Source of the DNA: a virus
Taxonomy: Duplodnaviria; Caudoviricetes
DNA length: 64,000 nucleotides
Direction: 5' to 3' (one strand)
IMG/VR virus record: IMGVR_UViG_3300036770_003093
Span: 54,244-118,243 of that record
Shown here: in pieces, positions 14,288 to 55,062 of the stretch
Layout of the letters: every line of letters begins with the position of its first letter
Numbering within the stretch: the first letter of the stretch is position 1
Notes under the pieces: generated by a model
The model's database searches: none
What the model was told of the DNA's origin: nothing
The model's input: only the letters and a program-made list of their open reading frames with translations
Position numbers and translations under genes: made by a program

Positions 14288-15469
14288 TTACAAGAATGCA
14301 GCTAGCTGGGCGCCGGTGCTTTGAACAGTAGATGCATCTTTTAGTCTCTCTCCAATACTATTAGGTGTAGTAATACTTGCTAGTGGTACATTCCAGATGT
14401 CTGTAGGATTTAAATATGCTGTTCCTGTAGTATTATCAACAGGTACACCAAGGCTTACCGTATTTGCAGGTGGCACAGCGCATGTACCTGTTAGGTTATT
14501 TGTAGGGCCGTAAACAATACCAGTTCTTACGTTGTTGGTTGCAGGATGCCCAGTTGCAACGCCGGGGGTGTATAGGGTGTTGGTAGTTAGGTTTGATTTT
14601 CTGAACTCCCAAGAATTTACATTTTCAATAAATACAAAGTTTATAACTGTTGCCATTAGGCCATTTGATGCATTAAAAATATCGCCATACATATAAAGTG
14701 TAAGACCGCCAGCAACGCCGTATGAATTTGTATTTGCAGATAGCGAACCAGTTATTGTAACATTTGCAGTCCCCGATGACCTTATTGCTGTGCATGGATT
14801 TCCCAAATTATTCGATATGCCAGCCGTTACGTTTCCAATTATATTAACTGTATGGCTATTCCCTTGAAGCCCTATTCCAAAATTTGCGATGCCGCTGCCT
14901 CCAAAAACATTCCCAGCTATGTTGATAGTATTGCTATTTAAACCCTCAATACCATTTCCCAACCCAGCTGCACCTCCTGAACCAGCTTGCGTTCCACCAT
15001 ATACATCGCCAGTTAAATTTAAAGTTGCTGCGTTTGCAAGTTCTATACCCCTATAAGCTGTTGTTGTTACATTCCCAACAAAATTTAAAGTTGCACTTGA
15101 TGTTAATCTAACTCCAGCATTGAAGAGACTTCCTGATGTTACAACCAAATTACCATTTATGTTTACAATGTTTGGGAAAGATGCAGTTACTGATATTAAA
15201 TTATTGCCACTTGCATGAAACAAATCAGCATTTACCGTTCTTGATGTTGAAATAACACCAGCACCCCCAGCCGTTACTCCTGTTGCGCTGTTGTTTCTAA
15301 TCTGTAAAACCGTAACATCAACATCCATTTGCACGGTGAAATTGTTGAAATACACAACATCACTCGCCCCCGGCAACACCGTAGATGCGACATAGCTACC
15401 AGTCGAATCGTCTTGCCAAGTAGCCAATGCCGACCAGTTGCCGTTGGCTACCGCTTTGTAATTAGCCAT
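14288..15469 (-). CDS. Gly/Asn/Thr-rich beta-solenoid virion protein (fibre/spike-like)
   Basis: Repetitive NxxGNVxG units; ANGNWSALATW N-terminus. Confidence 0.55.
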   Translation of the reverse strand: MANYKAVANGNWSALATWQDDSTGSYVASTVLPGASDVVYFNNFTVQMDVDVTVLQIRNNSATGVTAGGAGVISTSRTVNADLFHASGNNLISVTASFPNIVNINGNLVVTSGSLFNAGVRLTSSATLNFVGNVTTTAYRGIELANAATLNLTGDVYGGTQAGSGGAAGLGNGIEGLNSNTINIAGNVFGGSGIANFGIGLQGNSHTVNIIGNVTAGISNNLGNPCTAIRSSGTANVTITGSLSANTNSYGVAGGLTLYMYGDIFNASNGLMATVINFVFIENVNSWEFRKSNLTTNTLYTPGVATGHPATNNVRTGIVYGPTNNLTGTCAVPPANTVSLGVPVDNTTGTAYLNPTDIWNVPLASITTPNSIGERLKDASTVQSTGAQLAAFL

Positions 15470-23685: not shown

Positions 23686-23698
23686 AATTTTTCTTTAA

Positions 23699-24124
23699 GG
23701 TTGATAAACCTTGACAAGCATGTGGGGCAACGACACCATTCTATCTATTACTGCAAGTAAAATAGATAGTATCAAACACTTTTGCAGAGTGTAATGGTAT
23801 CATATGAGATATAATCTCTATGATTTAGCGTTTGTGCAGACTTAAAAATCATGCAGTTATAAGCAACTTGATATGTTGTGGAAGTTACATAACTTTAAAA
23901 GCAAAATGCTTATCTCTATCTCAAAAAAGTCACAGAGGTAGATGCTTAATGGTTTGTGACGAACCATAAAAATTTGGGAGTATATGCGTTAAGCCACATG
24001 ATGCAGACTGGTAATCTGTTGAATCCCATTTATATGACAACTAACAACCGACAGGGGGGTAAATACTCACCTTGTAAGTGATCTACCAAAGATTGCGAGT
24101 CCTCAACAAGCTGTTAAATCAGCC
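23699..24124 (+). ncRNA. Candidate large structured ncRNA (~425 nt)
   Basis: No ORF of 60 aa or more; closing stem ggttgat/atcagcc, long-range catgtgg/ccacatg and many internal hairpins. Confidence 0.5.
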
Positions 24125-28692: not shown

Positions 28693-28792
28693 AGTCAGGT
28701 GGCAGAATTGGTAACAGTTCCTGGGCTATTAAGGATGCTGGAAACGGTAGATAGAGAGATTCTTAATGCGGGTTCGATTCCCGCCCTGGCTC
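28693..28792 (+). ncRNA. tRNA-like RNA without a canonical anticodon arm, copy 2
   Basis: AGTCAGG/CCTGGCT acceptor stem, TGGCAGAATTGGTAA D-like region and GCGGG-TTCGATT-CCCGC T-arm. Confidence 0.65.
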
Positions 28793-47443: not shown

Positions 47444-48682
47444 ATGCTTAAGCCAACACACATAAGTGTTAATGTAATCTTTAAAAAAGAGTTTGGTTTC
47501 AAAACAATTAAACTATCTGAAAATCCGTTGATTATAGCAGATGATGATAAAGATAATCTTAAAAAACACATAGAGAGTTATTTAAACTTATCGACTTTTG
47601 ACACTAGTAACTTTCCTAGTATATTCATAGATAAGTCCTGTAAAATTCCAAGAGCTAAACTCGGCGCCCTTAAAGACAATAAAACTCTACAGGTAAAAAG
47701 AGATATTCAAAAAGCTGATTACTTAGTTATTAACAAAGATAGTTACATAGACAACATGATGGAGTATACCTGGGCTTATGAGTTAATCTATCTAGATGAA
47801 CTTCACAACTGGGTAAAGTTTGATTTACAGCATAGACAAGGATACAGTGATGAAGAAAGAGAAACTATAAAATCAAATTTTGCAGAAATTGTAGAACTAT
47901 GTAAAGCTCATTCTATAACTAAACTTTCGATTAGAGTAGATTATGAACTTAGAAAAATTCTATGTGAACCAGACTCTGTTTACAGAAATAACTATTTTAG
48001 TCATTTATTAAATGCACCTGATCCTTTAACAGTAAATTTTCTCAATAATCCTGCACGTGGAAAAAATGAAGATGGTGATATAATATGTATAGACCTACGT
48101 CACTATGTAGAGTTAAACAATGAAAAATTACAGGCTTTAATTTATGCACTGCAGAACAACATAAAAATCATTAACTCCTCAGAGGTTACTAAGCTAATCA
48201 ATGTAACAGTTATTGATAAAGAGTTGTTTGAGTCATTAAACAACATGTTACAAAGCCAAGACCGGTCTAATCATGATACAGCTCTAGAAATAATAGCTTC
48301 TTGTGATTTTGAAGAATCTCTATTTTATATAGTGTTACTGCTGAATCTTAACTATCAAAGTGTTGCCTATTCTGATTACTTCAAACATGTTAACTTTCAA
48401 GCTGTTGTGCAATTTGTTAGAACAAAGTTAAATAAAGGAGAGATGAGTACACCATATAGATTTCGTAGTGCTATGGGTGGTCAAAAATGTATTGAAAACG
48501 ACTCTAAACATCTGCTAGAATCAGGATATATGTTTTCTGAACACAAATGGGTAGTTGAAAAATATATGTTCCCTTATCATGAAATAGACTGCGATTTCAT
48601 AGACACAGAATTTTTAATTGCTAAGTCTGTTCTTGAACAAATAGAAATAAACGATAAACGTAAAGAAGAAAATGAACTTTGA
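47444..48682 (+). CDS. Hypothetical protein
   Basis: 412-aa ORF. Confidence 0.7.
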   Translation: MLKPTHISVNVIFKKEFGFKTIKLSENPLIIADDDKDNLKKHIESYLNLSTFDTSNFPSIFIDKSCKIPRAKLGALKDNKTLQVKRDIQKADYLVINKDSYIDNMMEYTWAYELIYLDELHNWVKFDLQHRQGYSDEERETIKSNFAEIVELCKAHSITKLSIRVDYELRKILCEPDSVYRNNYFSHLLNAPDPLTVNFLNNPARGKNEDGDIICIDLRHYVELNNEKLQALIYALQNNIKIINSSEVTKLINVTVIDKELFESLNNMLQSQDRSNHDTALEIIASCDFEESLFYIVLLLNLNYQSVAYSDYFKHVNFQAVVQFVRTKLNKGEMSTPYRFRSAMGGQKCIENDSKHLLESGYMFSEHKWVVEKYMFPYHEIDCDFIDTEFLIAKSVLEQIEINDKRKEENEL

Positions 48683-49709
48683 TGAACTTGCGCTAGAAGG
48701 AGAATTCTACGCTAAAGATTTTTACTTTAGCTACTCCTCACTAAACAAACTACTGTATTCGCCGTCAGCTTTCTATAAGCACTACATCCTTAATGAAAGA
48801 GAAGACAAAGTAGAATCTTATTTGATTACAGGTAAGGTTATACATAGTCTTATTCTTGATAAAGGACGCTTTGACGATTTCTTTGTGGTTGTTCCCACGA
48901 ATCTTCCCGGGGATAGCATACGGAGAATTGTAGACTACATTTTCAAAGAACACTTTCTAAAACAAGAAGACTTTGAGAAAAATCTAGAAGACTATGATAA
49001 AGAGATACTTGCACACATGCAAGAAATAAATCTCTATCAGAGTTTGGTAGATGACAAAAAAGATGTACATTTGACAGGTGATAAGAAGCGACTCGAAAAG
49101 ATTATCACAGACCAATCCAAACAATACTTCTCGTACCTCAAATCAAGCTTAGGTAAAGATTTAATCGACGAAGAGACACTGAGAATTTGTGAAGAGGCCG
49201 TTGTGGCAGTAAAGCAAAACAAGCGGGCTTGTGAGCTTTTAAACACAGAGGCACAGTTTGAGTTACAAGAAGTATACAATGAGATGTTTATATCAAGGGA
49301 TTATAGACCCGTTTACCCTTTTGGTTTAAAGGGTATAATTGATAATATAACCATTGACCACTCTAAGAAGGTTATAACAATATGTGACCTTAAGACAAGT
49401 GGTAAAACACTCAGCGAGTTTCCAACAACAATAGAGTTCTATAATTATTGGTTACAGGCAGCACTCTACGTCAGAATGGTTCACCACGAGTTAGTTCTCA
49501 GTAAACCAGACGCTAATATGTGGAAAATCAACTTTCACTTTGTGGTAGTTGATAAGTTCAACATGTGCTATGTTTTCGATGTTACAGACGAAACTATGAA
49601 TGTTTGGCAAGAACGTCTTACAGATGTACTCAACAAAGCAAGTTATCATTACTCAAATCGCTCATTTAGTCTTCCCTATGAGTTCTTAGTTGGTAATGTA
49701 AAACTGTAA
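48672..49709 (+). CDS. PD-(D/E)XK exonuclease (DUF3799/RecE-like)
   Basis: SYSSLNK, GKVIH, KGIIDN, DLKTSG and YWLQAALY motifs. Confidence 0.85.
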   Translation: MNFDELALEGEFYAKDFYFSYSSLNKLLYSPSAFYKHYILNEREDKVESYLITGKVIHSLILDKGRFDDFFVVVPTNLPGDSIRRIVDYIFKEHFLKQEDFEKNLEDYDKEILAHMQEINLYQSLVDDKKDVHLTGDKKRLEKIITDQSKQYFSYLKSSLGKDLIDEETLRICEEAVVAVKQNKRACELLNTEAQFELQEVYNEMFISRDYRPVYPFGLKGIIDNITIDHSKKVITICDLKTSGKTLSEFPTTIEFYNYWLQAALYVRMVHHELVLSKPDANMWKINFHFVVVDKFNMCYVFDVTDETMNVWQERLTDVLNKASYHYSNRSFSLPYEFLVGNVKL

Positions 49710-49714
49710 ACCCC

Positions 49715-50281
49715 ATGGTTATCGAATCTTTGTACACGGATTATTTCCAAAAATCTAAAGCCTTTATGTATCCGGTTTTAGGTGTTAAACGAGGAAGCAG
49801 TGTCACACCCATTGAAACTTATGTTTCATGGGTGGGGCACCTTGTTCCTGAAGACATGCGTTTGATATGCAAGTATCACATGCGTGAGGATGCAGAATTT
49901 ATAAACTTTGAAAAGACCCATTTACGAAGCTCTAAATACTTTGAAAGATTTCATCTTGTAGATGATAAAACAGGACTTTACATATTTGATATGTCTAAGC
50001 ATAAATCTGACTGGTATTACCTTCTAAGCGGTAAATATTCAAAGTTTAGTAATAATCAAAAGAATATCATCTTAAAATTCTTTGGTGGTAATTCTTCAAG
50101 CTCTGTCTACATAGACAGTTTCTTGAATCCAAAAAAATATTTTGAAATCTATGCGAAACTACTAGATGTTCCTAAAGAGCTTTTAGAAAGCGTTGGCGAG
50201 CTGTGCTCTATGCCGGATTTAGAAAAGGAATCACTAGTATCTTTAGTGGAAGATTTTGATAGAAGCGCGTTAATTAGCTAA
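49715..50281 (+). CDS. Hypothetical protein
   Basis: 188-aa ORF. Confidence 0.7.
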   Translation: MVIESLYTDYFQKSKAFMYPVLGVKRGSSVTPIETYVSWVGHLVPEDMRLICKYHMREDAEFINFEKTHLRSSKYFERFHLVDDKTGLYIFDMSKHKSDWYYLLSGKYSKFSNNQKNIILKFFGGNSSSSVYIDSFLNPKKYFEIYAKLLDVPKELLESVGELCSMPDLEKESLVSLVEDFDRSALIS

Positions 50282-50299
50282 CTTTACCAAAAAATTATA

Positions 50300-50704
50300 A
50301 TGAAAAACAACAGTATTAAACCAACAATGCTTGCTATCAAATCAACGTGGAATGGCAAGCAAACAGCAAAGCTTATACCTATAAGTAACGATTGCCCTTA
50401 TGTAGAATGTATAATGGATCCAGAGAGCAAAATCATGGTAGTTATCTCTAAAGTTTCTAAGCAAACTTTACATATGCTACCAAGATTAGATGACAATGGG
50501 GACCCTAAAATACTTAAAGTAACCAAGCGTCCTAGTGGTAAAACAGTAATGGAAGAGCGTAAAACAATTGAGACTTTCCAAGAATACTATATTGATGATA
50601 AAACAGCCATTATGAATATAATCGACCTTCACAGCGTAAATCCTGAAGAGATTAAAGTTATAGTAGCTGAGATTTTATCAGACTCCGCAGCGAGTCAAAA
50701 ATAA
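50300..50704 (+). CDS. Hypothetical protein
   Basis: 134-aa ORF. Confidence 0.7.
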   Translation: MKNNSIKPTMLAIKSTWNGKQTAKLIPISNDCPYVECIMDPESKIMVVISKVSKQTLHMLPRLDDNGDPKILKVTKRPSGKTVMEERKTIETFQEYYIDDKTAIMNIIDLHSVNPEEIKVIVAEILSDSAASQK

Positions 50705-50805
50705 CCCTTTTGGGTTTAGTGGTAAGCAGTAGAGGCCGGGGGTAACACCCCGGCTTTTACATTCTCAAGCCACACCTTTACAAAACCAATAAAACACTTA
50801 ATAAA

Positions 50806-50988
50806 ATGGAAGAAGAAGTACTGAAAGAGTTAATCAAAGAAATGGAGCTTAGGGCAGCATCATTTGAGTATAACCGTGACTTGAATAAAGAAGTTGATGC
50901 ACAGCATGGTTATTGGGACGGCAAGCGTTCAGAAGCGCAATTTATGGTCGAAAAATTAACATGGATTTTGGAGAATGGTGGGCTTTAG
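50806..50988 (+). CDS. Small hypothetical protein between 21-nt direct repeats
   Basis: TCAAGCCACACCTTTACAAAA at 50765 and 50993. Confidence 0.65.
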   Translation: MEEEVLKELIKEMELRAASFEYNRDLNKEVDAQHGYWDGKRSEAQFMVEKLTWILENGGL

Positions 50989-51058
50989 AGAGTCAAGCCA
51001 CACCTTTACAAAATGACTAAAAAGTAAAGTTATATAGTTACCTTTTAACAATTAAATT

Positions 51059-51310
51059 ATGAACCAAGAACAAAGAATACGAATGAAACAAAAATTTGCT
51101 GATGCTGGAGAGCAGTCGGCATTGACAAACCTTGAACAATTGCCGAGCAGAATTAGGCATTATTTACTTGAGTGGAAAGATTGCCATTTAGAAGAATATT
51201 GTCGTAATTACGGCGAACTAAAATTACGTGATTTAACCAAGCGACAACTTCATGCTTTGTTTTATTATGCAACTTCAAAAGATTTTTCATTGAAATCTTG
51301 GGAAGATTGA
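51059..51310 (+). CDS. Small hypothetical protein
   Basis: 83-aa ORF followed by ..ACGCATAAC. Confidence 0.65.
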   Translation: MNQEQRIRMKQKFADAGEQSALTNLEQLPSRIRHYLLEWKDCHLEEYCRNYGELKLRDLTKRQLHALFYYATSKDFSLKSWED

Positions 51311-51426
51311 TAGCATTACGCATAACCGCACCTGCAATTTTTAGAACCCGAATCAGCCCCTATTACACTTAATAAATAAAACAAAATAAGTTTGGGGTGA
51401 ATTATTAACAACTAAACTTTATTAAA

Positions 51427-51669
51427 ATGCAAGAAAATTCAAAAAACAACGAAACTGCCCAATTGGGTATAGGTGCTGTTATGCACCGTTTGAAAACTAT
51501 ACAAACATTGAGAAATAGTCCAGACCTACTGCTGCTAATGGCGGAGTTTAAACGAGCTAATTTTGTTGGCTCTTACATAATAAAACATCAAATTGAATCA
51601 GAGGAAGAGTTAGCAGCAGTATGGCTATCTCAATTGGAAGCACAATTGTTTCGGTCAAATGGTGCATAA
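51427..51669 (+). CDS. Cassette-associated hypothetical protein
   Basis: Stop codon lies inside GCATAAC; the N-terminus is encoded by an attC-like half site. Confidence 0.6.
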   Translation: MQENSKNNETAQLGIGAVMHRLKTIQTLRNSPDLLLLMAEFKRANFVGSYIIKHQIESEEELAAVWLSQLEAQLFRSNGA

Positions 51670-51963
51670 CGTTTTGCAAATAGGCGAAGCGGAACGTAGT
51701 GTAGTTTTGCTTATTTGCTGTTATAAGCCGTTTTTATTTACTAATTAATTTTAAAAATATGATGACAATAAACTTAAACATCAAGGCAAATGTAGATAAT
51801 CTAACACTTGCAGAAATTTACGAACTACTTGCTAAGTATAGCCGAGAAACAAAAAACAAGGACAATTTTTATGAGTTCAAAGGCTATATTTTTAAAATAG
51901 AAGCACAAACCAATATGTCAATTGATTATGTTATTACAGAGGTCATTTAAAATGGCTTATAAC
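51478..51963 (+). mobile_element. Integron-like gene cassette array (two cassettes with attC-like sites)
   Basis: GTTATGCACCGTTTGA...TCAAATGGTGCATAAC and GTTATAAGCCGTTTT...AAAATGGCTTATAAC, with a full hairpin at 51664-51729 between them. Confidence 0.65.
51759..51950 (+). CDS. Cassette-borne small hypothetical protein
   Basis: 63-aa ORF filling the second cassette. Confidence 0.65.
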   Translation: MMTINLNIKANVDNLTLAEIYELLAKYSRETKNKDNFYEFKGYIFKIEAQTNMSIDYVITEVI

Positions 51964-52035
51964 TAATGTATAGGCGCAACAGCCCTACTTAGGTGGGGCT
52001 TTTTGTTATAAACCACTAAGATTAATAACTATGAT

Positions 52036-54027
52036 ATGGCATATGGATATGTAATGGACTATGAAACAATGTCCAACCTCTTCGTGGGTGTATTCGAGGA
52101 TATTAACACAGAAACTCAACACGTTTTTATAGTTCATAGGCTACGCAATGATCTTTCTAAACTACTCAAGTTCTTAGATGGTAATATCAAGAATAACGAA
52201 AGGCATATATCCTTTAATGGTTTAGCATTTGATGCTCAAATTACTGAGTATATACTTAAGCATCGTGATTACTTATTATCTATACCCGGGGAGGCTGTTG
52301 CTAGAGAAATCTACGCCGAGGCGCAACGGGTCATCGAGCTTAGTAACGCCGGCGAGTTTGCTAGCTATTCTGAGTGGCAGATGAAGATTAAACAGATAGA
52401 TGTATTTAAGCTAAACCACTGGGATAATGCTGCGAAACGCTCTAGTTTAAAATGGATACAGTATTCCATGGATTGGTCTAACATACAAGACATGCCATAC
52501 ATCCATACTCTGGATGTAGAAAGTTTTGATATAATCAATGAAATCGTAGACTACTGTATCAATGACGTAAAGTCCACTAAAGCAATTTTGTTCCTGTCTA
52601 AAAACCAGGTAAATCTAAGAAACAAACTAAGCCTAGAGTATAAGATATCTCTTTATTCAGCATCAGAGCCCAAGATTTCTAAAGATTTATTTCTGTTGTT
52701 TTTATCTAAGAAGCTTAAGGTTCCTAAGTATGAGCTCAAGAAATATAAAACTGTAAGGAAGTCTATTGATATCTCTAAGATACTACTAGACTATATCAGT
52801 TTTGTTAGACCAGAGTTTCAAAGGTTGCATGCGAAGTTTAAAAGCTTAATCATCGACCCGAAGAATACTAAAGGCGCCTTTGAGTATCACATTAGGTACC
52901 GCAATGTTCAAACAGATTTTGGTTTTGGCGGCGTGCATGGTTCAAATAAAAGCGGTGAATATGTTGCTAAGGACGGCATGATTATCATGACCTCAGATGT
53001 AACTAGCTTCTACCCGAATCTTGCAATTAGAAACAAATGGTCACCTGCACACATACCCAAAGATATATTCTGTGAGCAGTATGAGTGGTTCTTCGATGAG
53101 CGTACAAAAATACCGAAGAAAGACCCCAAGAACTATGTGTACAAGATTATTCTAAACAGTACATATGGTTTGAGCAATGAGGAAAATAGTTTCTTATATG
53201 ACCCCGAGTTTACCATGCGTATCACCATGAATGGTCAGCTAACACTAATGATGCTTTACGAAATGATTTGTGAAGCTATCCCGGAAGCTATACCAATTAT
53301 GCAGAATACAGATGGTCTAGAAACAATGATTCCTGAACACGCGTATGATAAATATATGGAAGTGTGTAAACGGTGGGAGGAGATAACAAAATTATCTCTA
53401 GAACATGACCAGTACGATAGAATATTTCTCGGCGACGTGAATAACTATATCGCCCTATTCACAGAAAAGGAATGCTCTCAAGAGGAGCTTTCTAAGATAC
53501 TGATAGCAAATCCCCACTTTCCACATAGAGAAGACAACGGCAAGTTCTATTATCAACCAGTAAAATGCAAGGGTAGATTTGAGTTCGTAGATCTTCCGCT
53601 TCATAAGAACAAGAGTTTTCTAATAATCCGCAAAGCTATTTACAACAACCTTGTGTTTAACACTCCTGTAGAAGAAACTATCAACAACTGCAAAGATGTT
53701 TTCGACTTCTGCGCAGGTGTAAAGATTAAAGGTGACTGGGAGTTTGTACAAACATGTATTATAAATGGCAAGGTAACAAAAGAAAAACTGCAGAACACAC
53801 TAAGATACTATGTAAGTAACAAAGGATGTAAAGTCATAAAGTATAATTACACAGATGGTAGAGAAATACAGCTTGAAAGCGGCCCGTGGCTGCAAACAAT
53901 TTTCGTTAAGTATGAAAAGAAACCTTTTGAGCAGTATGATTTAAATCTTAAATATTACATACTGAAAGCAAAGCAAGAAATAGAGAAGCTTAAACAAACA
54001 AACTTTAAACAATTAACTTTTTTCTAA
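52036..54027 (+). CDS. polB: DNA polymerase family B
   Basis: Exo motifs DYET, FNGLAFD and YCINDV; polymerase motifs SDVTSFYP, KIILNSTYG and NTDG. Confidence 0.92.
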   Translation: MAYGYVMDYETMSNLFVGVFEDINTETQHVFIVHRLRNDLSKLLKFLDGNIKNNERHISFNGLAFDAQITEYILKHRDYLLSIPGEAVAREIYAEAQRVIELSNAGEFASYSEWQMKIKQIDVFKLNHWDNAAKRSSLKWIQYSMDWSNIQDMPYIHTLDVESFDIINEIVDYCINDVKSTKAILFLSKNQVNLRNKLSLEYKISLYSASEPKISKDLFLLFLSKKLKVPKYELKKYKTVRKSIDISKILLDYISFVRPEFQRLHAKFKSLIIDPKNTKGAFEYHIRYRNVQTDFGFGGVHGSNKSGEYVAKDGMIIMTSDVTSFYPNLAIRNKWSPAHIPKDIFCEQYEWFFDERTKIPKKDPKNYVYKIILNSTYGLSNEENSFLYDPEFTMRITMNGQLTLMMLYEMICEAIPEAIPIMQNTDGLETMIPEHAYDKYMEVCKRWEEITKLSLEHDQYDRIFLGDVNNYIALFTEKECSQEELSKILIANPHFPHREDNGKFYYQPVKCKGRFEFVDLPLHKNKSFLIIRKAIYNNLVFNTPVEETINNCKDVFDFCAGVKIKGDWEFVQTCIINGKVTKEKLQNTLRYYVSNKGCKVIKYNYTDGREIQLESGPWLQTIFVKYEKKPFEQYDLNLKYYILKAKQEIEKLKQTNFKQLTFF

Positions 54028-54707
54028 TGGAACCATACGAAGTAATAGAATTAAAAAATGATCATGTACTACATATTGTACATGACACCAATCCTGAATC
54101 TCCCAGAAGCTGGGAGCCTTTAGGAACAATGATTTGTGTACACAGACGATATAATCTTGGAGATATTCAAGCAGACAGCAACCTTGAGTGCTTACAACAA
54201 ATTGCAGACGATTTAGGAATAACTGAGATTATAGAGGATCTCGAAATGTATGAAGAAATTTATGAAGATGAAGAGCAGCTTCAAGATTGGATTAACTCAA
54301 GAGAAGACTATGTAATTCTACCATTATATCTTTACGATCACGGTGGTATTACTATGAGTACTTCTAGTTATAGTTGCCGCTGGGATTCTGGTCAGGTAGG
54401 GTACATATATTGCCCTACCAACAAAATCCTAAAAGAATATGGTAACACTAACCTAAGTACTTTAACTAAAGTTGAGGACATTCTAGAAGATGAAGTAAAG
54501 ACATATGACCAGTATCTAACTGGTGACACTTATGGATATAAGCTTTACAAAAAAGAAAAGTGTTCTTTAGGCCACGAGCATCTTGAACTTATAGATTCTT
54601 GTTATGGTTTTTACGGAGATGATTTTAAACAAAATGGTATCTTTGGCCACATTGATTCTAAACTAATCCCCGAAGAATATGCAACAGCAACTGTGGAAAG
54701 TCATTGA
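54027..54707 (+). CDS. Conserved hypothetical protein
   Basis: LPLYLYDHGGITMS...WDSGQVGYI...DSCYGFYG. Confidence 0.75.
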   Translation: MEPYEVIELKNDHVLHIVHDTNPESPRSWEPLGTMICVHRRYNLGDIQADSNLECLQQIADDLGITEIIEDLEMYEEIYEDEEQLQDWINSREDYVILPLYLYDHGGITMSTSSYSCRWDSGQVGYIYCPTNKILKEYGNTNLSTLTKVEDILEDEVKTYDQYLTGDTYGYKLYKKEKCSLGHEHLELIDSCYGFYGDDFKQNGIFGHIDSKLIPEEYATATVESH

Positions 54708-55062
54708 CTTTCACCAATCTTTTAGACAACCCTATTCTAAGATACCTACACTACTTCCCATGGAAGAGTGCACTCTAAGACACGACCTCATGAAAGAGGA
54801 GAATGTAGAGTATCTCATTGCATGCGGAGAAGGTAATCTACCAGAGATTGCCGACGCTCTAGGAGATCAGTTATACATCTTACTTGGTACCATTATCAAA
54901 CATGGTATGCAAGATGTAATCGCTGATGTTTTTAGAGAAATCCATGATAGCAACATGACAAAACTAGGTGAAGATGGTTTACCTATTTTGCGCGAAGACG
55001 GTAAGATTTTAAAAGGTCCTAATTACAAAAAACCAAACATTAAACAATTCTTTGAAAAATGA
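54679..55062 (+). CDS. MazG-like NTP pyrophosphohydrolase
   Basis: LMKEENVE, IADALGDQLY, HDSNMTK and REDGKILKG motifs. Confidence 0.85.
   Translation: MQQQLWKVIDFHQSFRQPYSKIPTLLPMEECTLRHDLMKEENVEYLIACGEGNLPEIADALGDQLYILLGTIIKHGMQDVIADVFREIHDSNMTKLGEDGLPILREDGKILKGPNYKKPNIKQFFEK

Follow-up and report, generated by a model that had tools for sequence, protein, structure and literature searches.

By what means do small accessory genes enter, leave and replace each other in phage genomes? Turnover of phage accessory genes, among them those for anti-restriction methyltransferases and small orphan proteins, is rapid, and little is known of its mechanism outside T4-like phages. The question is raised by a locus directly upstream of a DNA polymerase gene in the DNA analyzed here (hereafter, the window), i.e. 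the last 64 kb of the 118,243-bp, 99% complete IMG/VR virus record IMGVR_UViG_3300036770_003093 (Duplodnaviria; Caudoviricetes; G000 hereafter). Two consecutive units of this locus each consist of a small open reading frame (ORF) bracketed by inverted repeats that begin with GTTAT and end with ATAAC, and an earlier note interpreted them as integron-like gene cassettes with attC-like sites. Their anatomy, the covariation of their arms and the co-orientation of their ORFs show both units to be, at the level of sequence, members of a widespread family of portable accessory-gene cassettes in phages of Bacteroidota-type hosts. The locus is not a canonical integron.

Two bracketed units and their common signature

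The near-perfect inverted repeats previously described around the two units are all in place, and so is the hairpin between the units (Table 1). In unit 1 (51478-51670), arms GTTATGCACCGTTTGA and TCAAATGGTGCATAAC pair over 16 nt with a single G.T. The stem of the hairpin between the units, with ATAAC-gtttt on one side and t-GTTAT on the other, contains three G.T pairs, and all five stem mismatches of the two units and this hairpin are indeed G.T on the + strand, as the earlier note had pointed out. The unit-1 ORF, which had been viewed as a fusion across a crossover, does stop in GCATAAC and starts 17-18 codons upstream of the arm, and its sole IMG/VR homologue matches from residue 17. Beyond the junction already described, we detected two similar ones (51320-51484 and 51953-52015). 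The loop of the former contains the ATG at 51427 that starts the unit-1 ORF, and the latter reads TGGCTTATAAC, a terminator hairpin, then GTTATAAaCCA. The locus is therefore built as ORF-YAAC-hairpin-GTTR-ORF three times over, the last one facing the DNA polymerase gene. No unit other than these two is present in the whole G000 genome.

We searched the 64-kb window for inverted repeats of 14 nt with arms 90-600 nt apart, no mismatch and at most one G.T. Six hits were obtained, counting register shifts, which correspond to both units and to one AT-rich pair within unit 2; 30 dinucleotide shuffles of the window gave 1.3 such repeats on average (maximum 5). Chance as the origin of the inverted repeats in the window is excluded. 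The preference for sense-strand folding, proposed earlier for this locus, is real and general: region 51470-52020 folds at -146.5 kcal/mol (z -5.3) on the + strand versus -126.2 kcal/mol (z -3.5) on the - strand, the hairpin between the units folds at -20.9 versus -8.8 kcal/mol, and the sense strand is the more stable one in 9 of 12 spacers. Both long-range unit stems are present in the minimum-energy structure of the + strand. The predicted fold also includes, within the unit-1 ORF, another long-range stem (51522-51538 / 51610-51626, CTGCTGCTAA/TTAGCAGCAG, 17 nt, 88% complementary).

The family shares the signature T/GTTR-N6-G-T ... A-T-N6'-YAAC/G (slashes mark unit borders), which forms stems of 14-15 bp: ten Watson-Crick pairs are followed by a G.T wobble, invariant at position 11, and by three further pairs. 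The N6 positions differ between units and remain complementary within each unit. We assembled 29 non-redundant units, chosen on GTTR/YAAC, at most one mismatch in the ten pairs, G.T at position 11 and T-A at position 12. As to features that were not selected, T occupies position -1 in all 29 units and G follows YAAC in 20 of them, while position 13 is paired in 29/29 and position 14 in 25/29. Upstream, T(-8) is found in 27 and A(-7) in 28 of the 29 units. The extra mismatches at positions 5-10 comprise four G.T, two T.T and no A.C. At position 11, all 29 units have the G on the 5' side of the stem and the T on the 3' side. The arms define a strand, which carries the longer ORF in 28 of the 29 units, and the stop codon falls within the 3' arm in 27, either 11-13 nt before the final C (22 units) or as the TAA of YAAC (5 units). 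When position 11 was left unselected, perfect 10-bp GTTR/YAAC pairs in 818 kb exhibited a G.T at that position in 19 of 55 cases; five shuffles of those loci gave totals of 23-41 perfect 10-bp pairs.

Covariation was evaluated in the family of the unit-2 ORF (ORF2), using an alignment of the six members (out of ten) with both arms intact, cut at the arm ends. Both sides have changed in four of the 12 stem pairs, and pairing is retained in 97% of cells. None of 500 shuffles matches the covariation score or the percentage of paired cells, and five match the number of pairs changed on both sides. Furthermore, of 17 arrayed units, 14 have arms that pair with each other at all six positions from 5 to 10, whereas arms facing each other across a spacer pair at 0-5 of the six positions. 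Complementarity links the distal arms around an ORF, not adjacent arms, and the unit-specific complementarity noticed at this locus thus turns out to be general. We found no description of this bracket signature in the open-access literature searched.

Cassette-wise exchange of units

Comparisons with other phages place the limits of homology at the arms. The only IMG/VR homologue of the unit-1 ORF (91% identical over residues 17-80) is similar to the window from GCT/GTTATGC to GCATAAC/, with unrelated flanks on both sides. ORF2 is related to ORFs of nine IMG/VR contigs (11-429 kb) and of an uncultured phage of 462 kb; a search of phage DNA yielded LR756500.1 as its sole match, to ORF2. Among 36 pairs of ORF2-family members, the right end of homology is at YAAC in nearly all, and the left end is at GTTR or at most ~15 nt upstream in nearly all. 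Only one pair (L007-L008) has the upstream spacer in common; otherwise, homology ends at both arms. In most comparisons the spacer hairpin is inherited with neither neighbour. The proposal that each unit existed as a circle integrating at a single GTT does not fit this pattern, since the hairpin between units does not follow either of them in most cases.

A close relative, G001 (118,449 bp), has a polymerase 98% identical to that of the window and carries different cassettes at the locus. Homology between the two covers 48600-50763 and 50991-51123, and restarts exactly after the ATAAC at 51961. The G001 cassettes found between the equivalents of 51123 and 51961 also finish in YAAC/TAATG. Spacer 2 shows four differences and a 2-nt indel in 41 nt between G001 and the window, and the following 195 nt show three differences.

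Population variants were read from Logan contigs of four DNA metagenome runs (X1, X2, X3, and X7), which, as assembled contigs, drop rare forms. RNA-labelled runs contained only 5-11% of the words, and all mapped runs were DNA. In X3, a 1813-nt contig joins 50760 to 52021, so that the entire 1260-nt region 50761-52020 is absent and the terminator is placed directly onto the polymerase leader. In X1 and X2, 210 other letters are found between GTTAT (51482) and TTATAAC (51957); if this alternative were a diverged unit 2, it would imply a precise gain of unit 1 and its spacer. Further joints include a G001-like connection of 51123 to 51961 and a reshuffled order leading from 52004 back to 51390. 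No target-site duplication, circle, empty site or strand-changing joint was seen in these contigs, which do not display rare forms. As to the comparison of the pre-polymerase locus across related phages, proposed in the earlier note, cassettes are gained, lost and replaced at the GTTR/YAAC borders, homology to G001 restarts after ATAAC, and the X3 variant lacks the whole region.

Identical 10-nt arms surround unrelated cargo: GTTGTGTGCA is associated with five families in eight hits, GTTGTGTGTA with four in four, and GTTGTGCATA with three in three, in a sample biased by the fact that loci were fetched by that arm type. Conversely, one cargo family bears four arm variants. The bracket is dispensable, as within the ORF2 family L005 lacks the 5' arm, L118 the 3' arm and L003 both, and L002 has CTT...AAG ends instead. 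Arrays reach six units in other phages, and orphan arms occur at array edges, for example at 52005 and 51320. These data, all drawn from sequence comparison, show units to be exchanged cassette-wise, with breakpoints at the stem ends.

Three other observations concern the left part of the same hot spot. A 21-nt direct repeat, TCAAGCCACACCTTTACAAAA, is present at 50765-50785 and 50993-51013, on either side of a 60-aa ORF (50806-50988), and G001 has a single copy and a different insert, i.e. modules of the hot spot are also exchanged in a second style, with direct repeats. The insert that replaces 50764-50990 of the window in G001 (117994-118258) resembles a tRNA in its T arm, GGTTTGAATCC, and in its acceptor-like ends. 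It finishes in CCTAAC/TAATGTATAGG; ARAGORN detected no tRNA in it. Finally, an 83-aa ORF (51059-51310) matches a G001 ORF (118329-118449) over its first 22 codons and then diverges. In G001, the 5' arm GTTAGCGGAAGT is located 13 nt past this breakpoint and its partner, ending in TTTTCGCTAAC, lies across the contig ends, and a unit appears to have been fused in frame to a resident start.

Spacers between units

Spacers are 5-170 nt long, start with G-(G/T)-T-T and end with T. Most of them form a 10-20-bp stem enclosing an A/T-rich loop, and the spacers of the window include terminator-like hairpins (51687-51712 and 51981-52000). Some loops carry the start and N-terminal codons of the next ORF, in which case the 5' arm is translated (unit 1; gp37 of the cultured Polaribacter phage P12002L). 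The GTT is codon-aligned in 9 of the 11 ORFs starting upstream of an arm, a count with no control for stop-codon bias. Spacer module 2 is reused: all nine copies found (the window and eight IMG/VR loci) follow YAAC, behind six different upstream sequences. In runs X1 and X2, the depth of this module is ~8-fold that of its flanks, with loose ends at 51965 and 52004/52005. A hairpin spacer is optional, because two units of a Balneolaceae metagenome-assembled genome (MAG) contig (L118, 3960-3985) are joined by 5 nt only, as CCTAAC-acggt-GTTACC. In the same contig, the unit-2 arm of the window, GTTATAAGCCGTTTT, recurs within another ORF, 250 nt downstream.

Distribution, hosts and cargo

The architecture was found in IMG/VR phages of 22-429 kb, in Bacteroidia MAG contigs and in phage P12002L. 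MAGs with units are labelled Chitinophagales, Saprospiraceae, Cyclobacteriaceae, Flavobacterium, Lewinella, Salibacteraceae, Draconibacterium, and Melioribacteraceae, besides a few unlikely labels. The best cultured match of the window's polymerase is in Cellulophaga phage phi14:2 (33%). In genome contigs, arm pattern GTAGTATTRYRCACAAC was detected in 111 stretches, which is at or below the ~555 expected from uniform base composition; only loci with a matching 5' arm were thus counted, i.e. 24 signature hits in the first 80 loci.

Cargo is varied. In a Saprospiraceae contig (L210) with five units, the cargo genes encode, among others, two N6_N4 DNA methyltransferases and a PAPS-reductase-like protein. 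P12002L has signature units at 39518-39242, 31120-30952, 40764-40552, and 14622-15197, as well as a methyltransferase gene (gp35) within a bracket that has T.T at position 11, and its spacers are of the same build. Clusters of attC sites lacking integron integrases (CALINs) have been reported in virulent phages including P12002L, and that report describes recombination by IntI1 of five of the six phage sites assayed; a site of the P12002L CALIN is recombined at G/TT (Qi et al. 2023, PMC9892861). The attC calls published for P12002L probably correspond to the spacers described here. A term search of the P12002L genome paper revealed no mention of such repeats (PMC4615864).

Relationship to integrons

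The units resemble integron cassettes and CALINs in several respects: arrays are co-oriented and mostly made of single genes, borders are of the AAC...GTT type, each cassette has a start and an end that are complementary to each other, neighbouring cassettes are separated by hairpins that vary in sequence and length, and cargo includes orphan DNA methyltransferases (L210, P12002L). Region 51664-51726 in particular has an attC-like layout (ATAAC, unpaired spacer, stem, GTTAT), but its irregularities are G.T pairs, not bulged bases. Canonical attC sites are local hairpins of 57-141 nt that combine 7-bp R''/R' boxes (RYYYAAC/GTTRRRY) with L boxes and extrahelical bases. Departure from the integron model is indicated by the sense-strand bias, by a box of 4 bp instead of 7 bp (only GTTR/YAAC, i.e. 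4/7 positions of the R boxes, is conserved) and by spacers that follow neither neighbour. In addition, complementarity extends here over 14-16 nt and links distal arms (6-7 nt in integrons), an invariant G.T takes the place of extrahelical bases, and the spacer is not inherited with the cassette.

The enzyme is missing as well. The earlier note saw no integrase in the window, and this holds for the whole 99%-complete genome, where Phage_integrase (PF00589) is not detected. Among five other unit-bearing phage records, Phage_integrase is found in one and is lacking in particular from the 429-kb record (96% complete); in the five unit-bearing phage records, Resolvase and RNase III were detected in none and Y1_Tnp in one. 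The latter is an IS200-type Y1 transposase located 41 kb from the units of a 195-kb phage record (G005, 131160-131522, - strand, 112 bits). On the host side, the integron integrase model TIGR02249 has no match above cut-off in five unit-bearing MAGs and is found in only one of 301 sampled genomes from the class of the Flavobacterium MAG. It was detected in 91 of 301 genomes of a phylum sample centred on the Balneolaceae MAG G008, indicating that the search works. The distribution of integron integrases within the phylum is strikingly uneven (91/301 versus 1/301). Alongside the intI genes of G008 and four other genomes we observed real attC arrays and no signature units. These real attC sites are G+C-rich local hairpins in which adjacent boxes are fully complementary, and the G008 integron is located ~207 kb from the ORF2 homologue of that genome. 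The cassette nature of the units, as claimed initially, is hence upheld by arrays of up to six units and by exchange at GTTR/YAAC, whereas their membership in the integron family is not, in view of the missing integrase and the 4/7 R box.

Possible roles of the stems

What, then, do the stems do? We tentatively favour a reading in which the units are portable cassettes; their stems would act at the level of the transcript, and crossovers would take place at their borders, as in the promoter early stem-loop (PeSL) modules of T4-like phages. Once formed in the RNA, a stem would bring together the two ends of its message and would include the stop codon. Messages closed in this manner would be marked by their fixed ends for a ubiquitous host RNA-processing or RNA-binding activity, while phages infecting the same cell would exchange DNA by general recombination, with crossovers at conserved borders and reused spacer modules, no integron machinery being involved. 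In this context, it may be noted that an exonuclease gene is located just upstream of the locus. Processing stems that surround a gene product in a long transcript are found in rRNA operons and at the RNase III sites of T7 early mRNA. There too, flanking complements pair over hundreds of bases and G.U is tolerated on the transcribed strand only, but here stems are of 14-15 bp with sequence-fixed ends and would enclose protein-coding messages. Exchange has been proposed at PeSL modules, which are small conserved regulatory hairpins between small non-essential ORFs in hyperplastic regions, relatives differing by insertion, deletion or replacement of ORFs at the modules (PMC4122927; PMC2839356). 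Differences between G000 and G001, the occurrence of module 2 behind six cassettes and the Logan joints are of the same kind. According to the same sources, PeSLs are direct repeats of one motif with a sigma-70-type promoter, whereas each ORF here also has its own inverted arms with a fixed signature, and host phylum and phage groups are different. Several points weigh against our preferred reading. A scan for sigma-70-type promoters (those of the Bacteroidota type lie outside its scope) detected none in the spacers. For homologous recombination, a stretch of 14-16 nt of arm and ~10 nt of spacer edge is short. The invariance of GTTR/YAAC, T(-1) and the G.T would require that a specific protein takes part, and identical arms on unrelated cargo, with homology ending at the stem base, are what is expected of a structure-specific DNA transaction. 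Moreover, an integron integrase can recombine a site of the P12002L CALIN in a published assay (PMC9892861). A fit by eye of the upstream T(-8)A(-7) to the -7 motif of Bacteroidota promoters was considered and rejected, and so was a tRNA-like reading of the stem base (U-1/G+1...C-G-UUU) based on the general preferences of RNase P and RNase Z.

A close rival to the transcript-stem reading, which we consider possible but somewhat less probable, is recombination of cassettes as single-stranded DNA without an integron: the sense strand would fold, and a trans-acting structure-specific recombinase would cut and rejoin it at the stem base (T/G, C/G). The folded strand would probably be the lagging-strand template, a host Xer-type tyrosine recombinase is one candidate for the enzyme, and the G.T at position 11 would discriminate between strands. 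Mismatches do mark the strand in attC sites and in IS200/IS605 elements, and Xer acts on folded DNA of the CTX phage. In the CTX phage and at IS200/IS605 ends alike, one strand folds and a stem imperfection marks the active strand, with no element-encoded tyrosine recombinase in the Xer case; these are, however, local hairpins of family-specific sequence, whereas the stems described here span a whole gene and have a variable core. Single-strand recombination best explains why homology to distant phages runs exactly from arm to arm, why the same arms occur on unrelated cargo (and one cargo family has four arm variants) and why the invariant mismatch stands at a fixed distance from the invariant ends. 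It is also consistent with spacers that mostly follow neither neighbour, with the orphan arms at 52005 and 51320, with the YAAC-acggt-GTTR joint of the Balneolaceae MAG, and with the G/TT activity of IntI1 reported for P12002L, which carries the same units (PMC9892861). On the other hand, unit-bearing phages have no candidate enzyme in common, contigs (which miss rare forms) reveal no target-site duplication, circle or empty site, and four of the ten ORF2-family members lack one arm or GTT/AAC ends but keep the ORF. Nor is there a single crossover point, as L007 and L008 have their upstream spacer in common while G000 and G001 suggest that the downstream spacer travels with the cassette. A broader proposal, i.e. 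an undescribed integrase-independent cassette system operating across Bacteroidota phages, in which single strands (DNA, possibly RNA) carrying a split, sense-folding site would be cut and pasted by a conserved host enzyme, seems rather unlikely to us. We regard as very improbable that the locus is part of a true integron, namely a CALIN whose hairpin junctions would be attC sites for a host integron integrase. The attC-like layout of 51664-51726, the P12002L CALIN with its five of six sites recombined by IntI1 (PMC9892861) and the GCATAAC/GTTATGC R boxes, which also occur in real attC arrays by intI in relatives of G008, are in line with it, but they are set against the missing Phage_integrase in G000, the scarcity of TIGR02249 (0/5 unit-bearing MAGs, 1/301 class genomes), R boxes conserved at 4/7 positions, folding that is best on the sense and not the bottom strand, the G+C-rich local hairpins of the real attC sites observed, the lack of signature units beside the intI genes of those genomes, and the ~207 kb that separate the G008 integron from the ORF2 homologue. 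Least probable of all are non-autonomous transposons, similar to miniature inverted-repeat transposable elements with a passenger gene and with arms acting as transposase-bound terminal inverted repeats, or invertible segments. In favour of such elements are the length of the terminal inverted repeats (14-16 bp), the conservation of their outer bases and the association of the same arms with different cargo. However, the N6 core varies yet stays complementary within a unit, a property that repeats bound by a protein could do without, the flanks show no target duplication, no transposase family is common to the phages (Y1_Tnp 1/5, Resolvase 0/5), and no inverted state is seen (29/29 units with the G on the 5' side and the T on the 3' side; ORF co-oriented in 28/29).

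Organization of the locus

The coordinates of the hot spot and its components are given in Table 1. None of the four small ORFs of the hot spot has a Pfam or PHROG match. The ORF2 product is an orphan beta-alpha-beta3 protein according to its structure model (pLDDT 87), for which no PDB match was found at E <= 0.001. No Rfam family was detected at the locus, either at gathering thresholds (whole window) or at E <= 10 (51200-52100). A PD-(D/E)XK exonuclease gene is located just upstream (48672-49709).

Table 1. Coordinates of the accessory hot spot and its components in the window.
Feature	Position	Strand	Remarks
Accessory hot spot	50761-52020	+	From the terminator of the upstream gene to the DNA polymerase gene; four small ORFs, including those of both units
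Junction 0	51320-51484	+	GCATAAC, stem CGCACCT/AGGTGC, 137-nt A/T-rich loop, t-GTTATGC; repeat pair of 14 nt, 93%
Unit 1, 5' arm GTTATGCACCGTTTGA	51478-51493	+	In-frame ATG at 51481 inside the arm
Unit 1 ORF	51427-51669	+	80 aa from 51427, 63 aa from the ATG at 51481; stop TAA within GCATAAC
Unit 1, 3' arm TCAAATGGTGCATAAC	51655-51670	+	Homology to L011 (IMG/VR contig with the unit-1 homologue) stops exactly at this arm
Spacer hairpin 1	51671-51719	+	gtttt, 15-bp stem (51676-51690 / 51704-51718), t; terminator-like
Unit 2, 5' arm GTTATAAGCCGTTTT...	51720-51741	+	First 15 nt pair with the 3' arm, one G.T
Unit 2 ORF	51759-51950	+	63 aa; stop codon abuts the 3' arm
Unit 2, 3' arm ...AAAATGGCTTATAAC	51942-51963	+	G001 homology restarts directly after the arm
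Spacer module 2	51964-52004	+	TAATGTATAGGCGCAACAG, G+C-rich terminator hairpin 51981-52000, T run
Orphan 5' arm GTTATAAACC	52005-52014	+	Precedes the polymerase gene; 9/10 paired with the unit-2 3' arm; missing from the X3 variant
DNA polymerase gene	52036-54027	+	phrog_1252, 1.2e-128; conserved right flank of the hot spot

Elsewhere in the window, a MazG-like nucleotide pyrophosphohydrolase is encoded past the polymerase gene, on its downstream side (54679-55062, + strand), and the same function is found in the replication module of P12002L. A full-length match to the Hatchet ribozyme (RF02678, 66.4 bits for a gathering score of 51, E 2.2e-11) is located at 23691-23854 (+ strand). A 100-nt stretch (28693-28792, + strand) weakly matches the tRNA family (30.3 bits for a gathering score of 29). 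It may represent a degenerate tRNA or one with an intron, ARAGORN having detected no tRNA in the window.

Significance

The compact signature described here detects swappable cassettes in unrelated phages of 22-429 kb and in the cultured Polaribacter phage P12002L, and a bench test is directly possible, because the signature is present in a cultured phage-host pair. It also calls for caution in the annotation of such phages, as programs that search for attC sites may label these junctions as integron sites. If the stems are RNA elements, they would represent a new packaging of single messages in hosts without Shine-Dalgarno-led translation. If instead they are recombination sites, gene capture similar to that of integrons would take place with no need for an integron, in a phylum with few integron integrases. 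The integrase-independent system, if true, would be a phage-borne counterpart of the integron, supplying anti-defence genes such as orphan methyltransferases.

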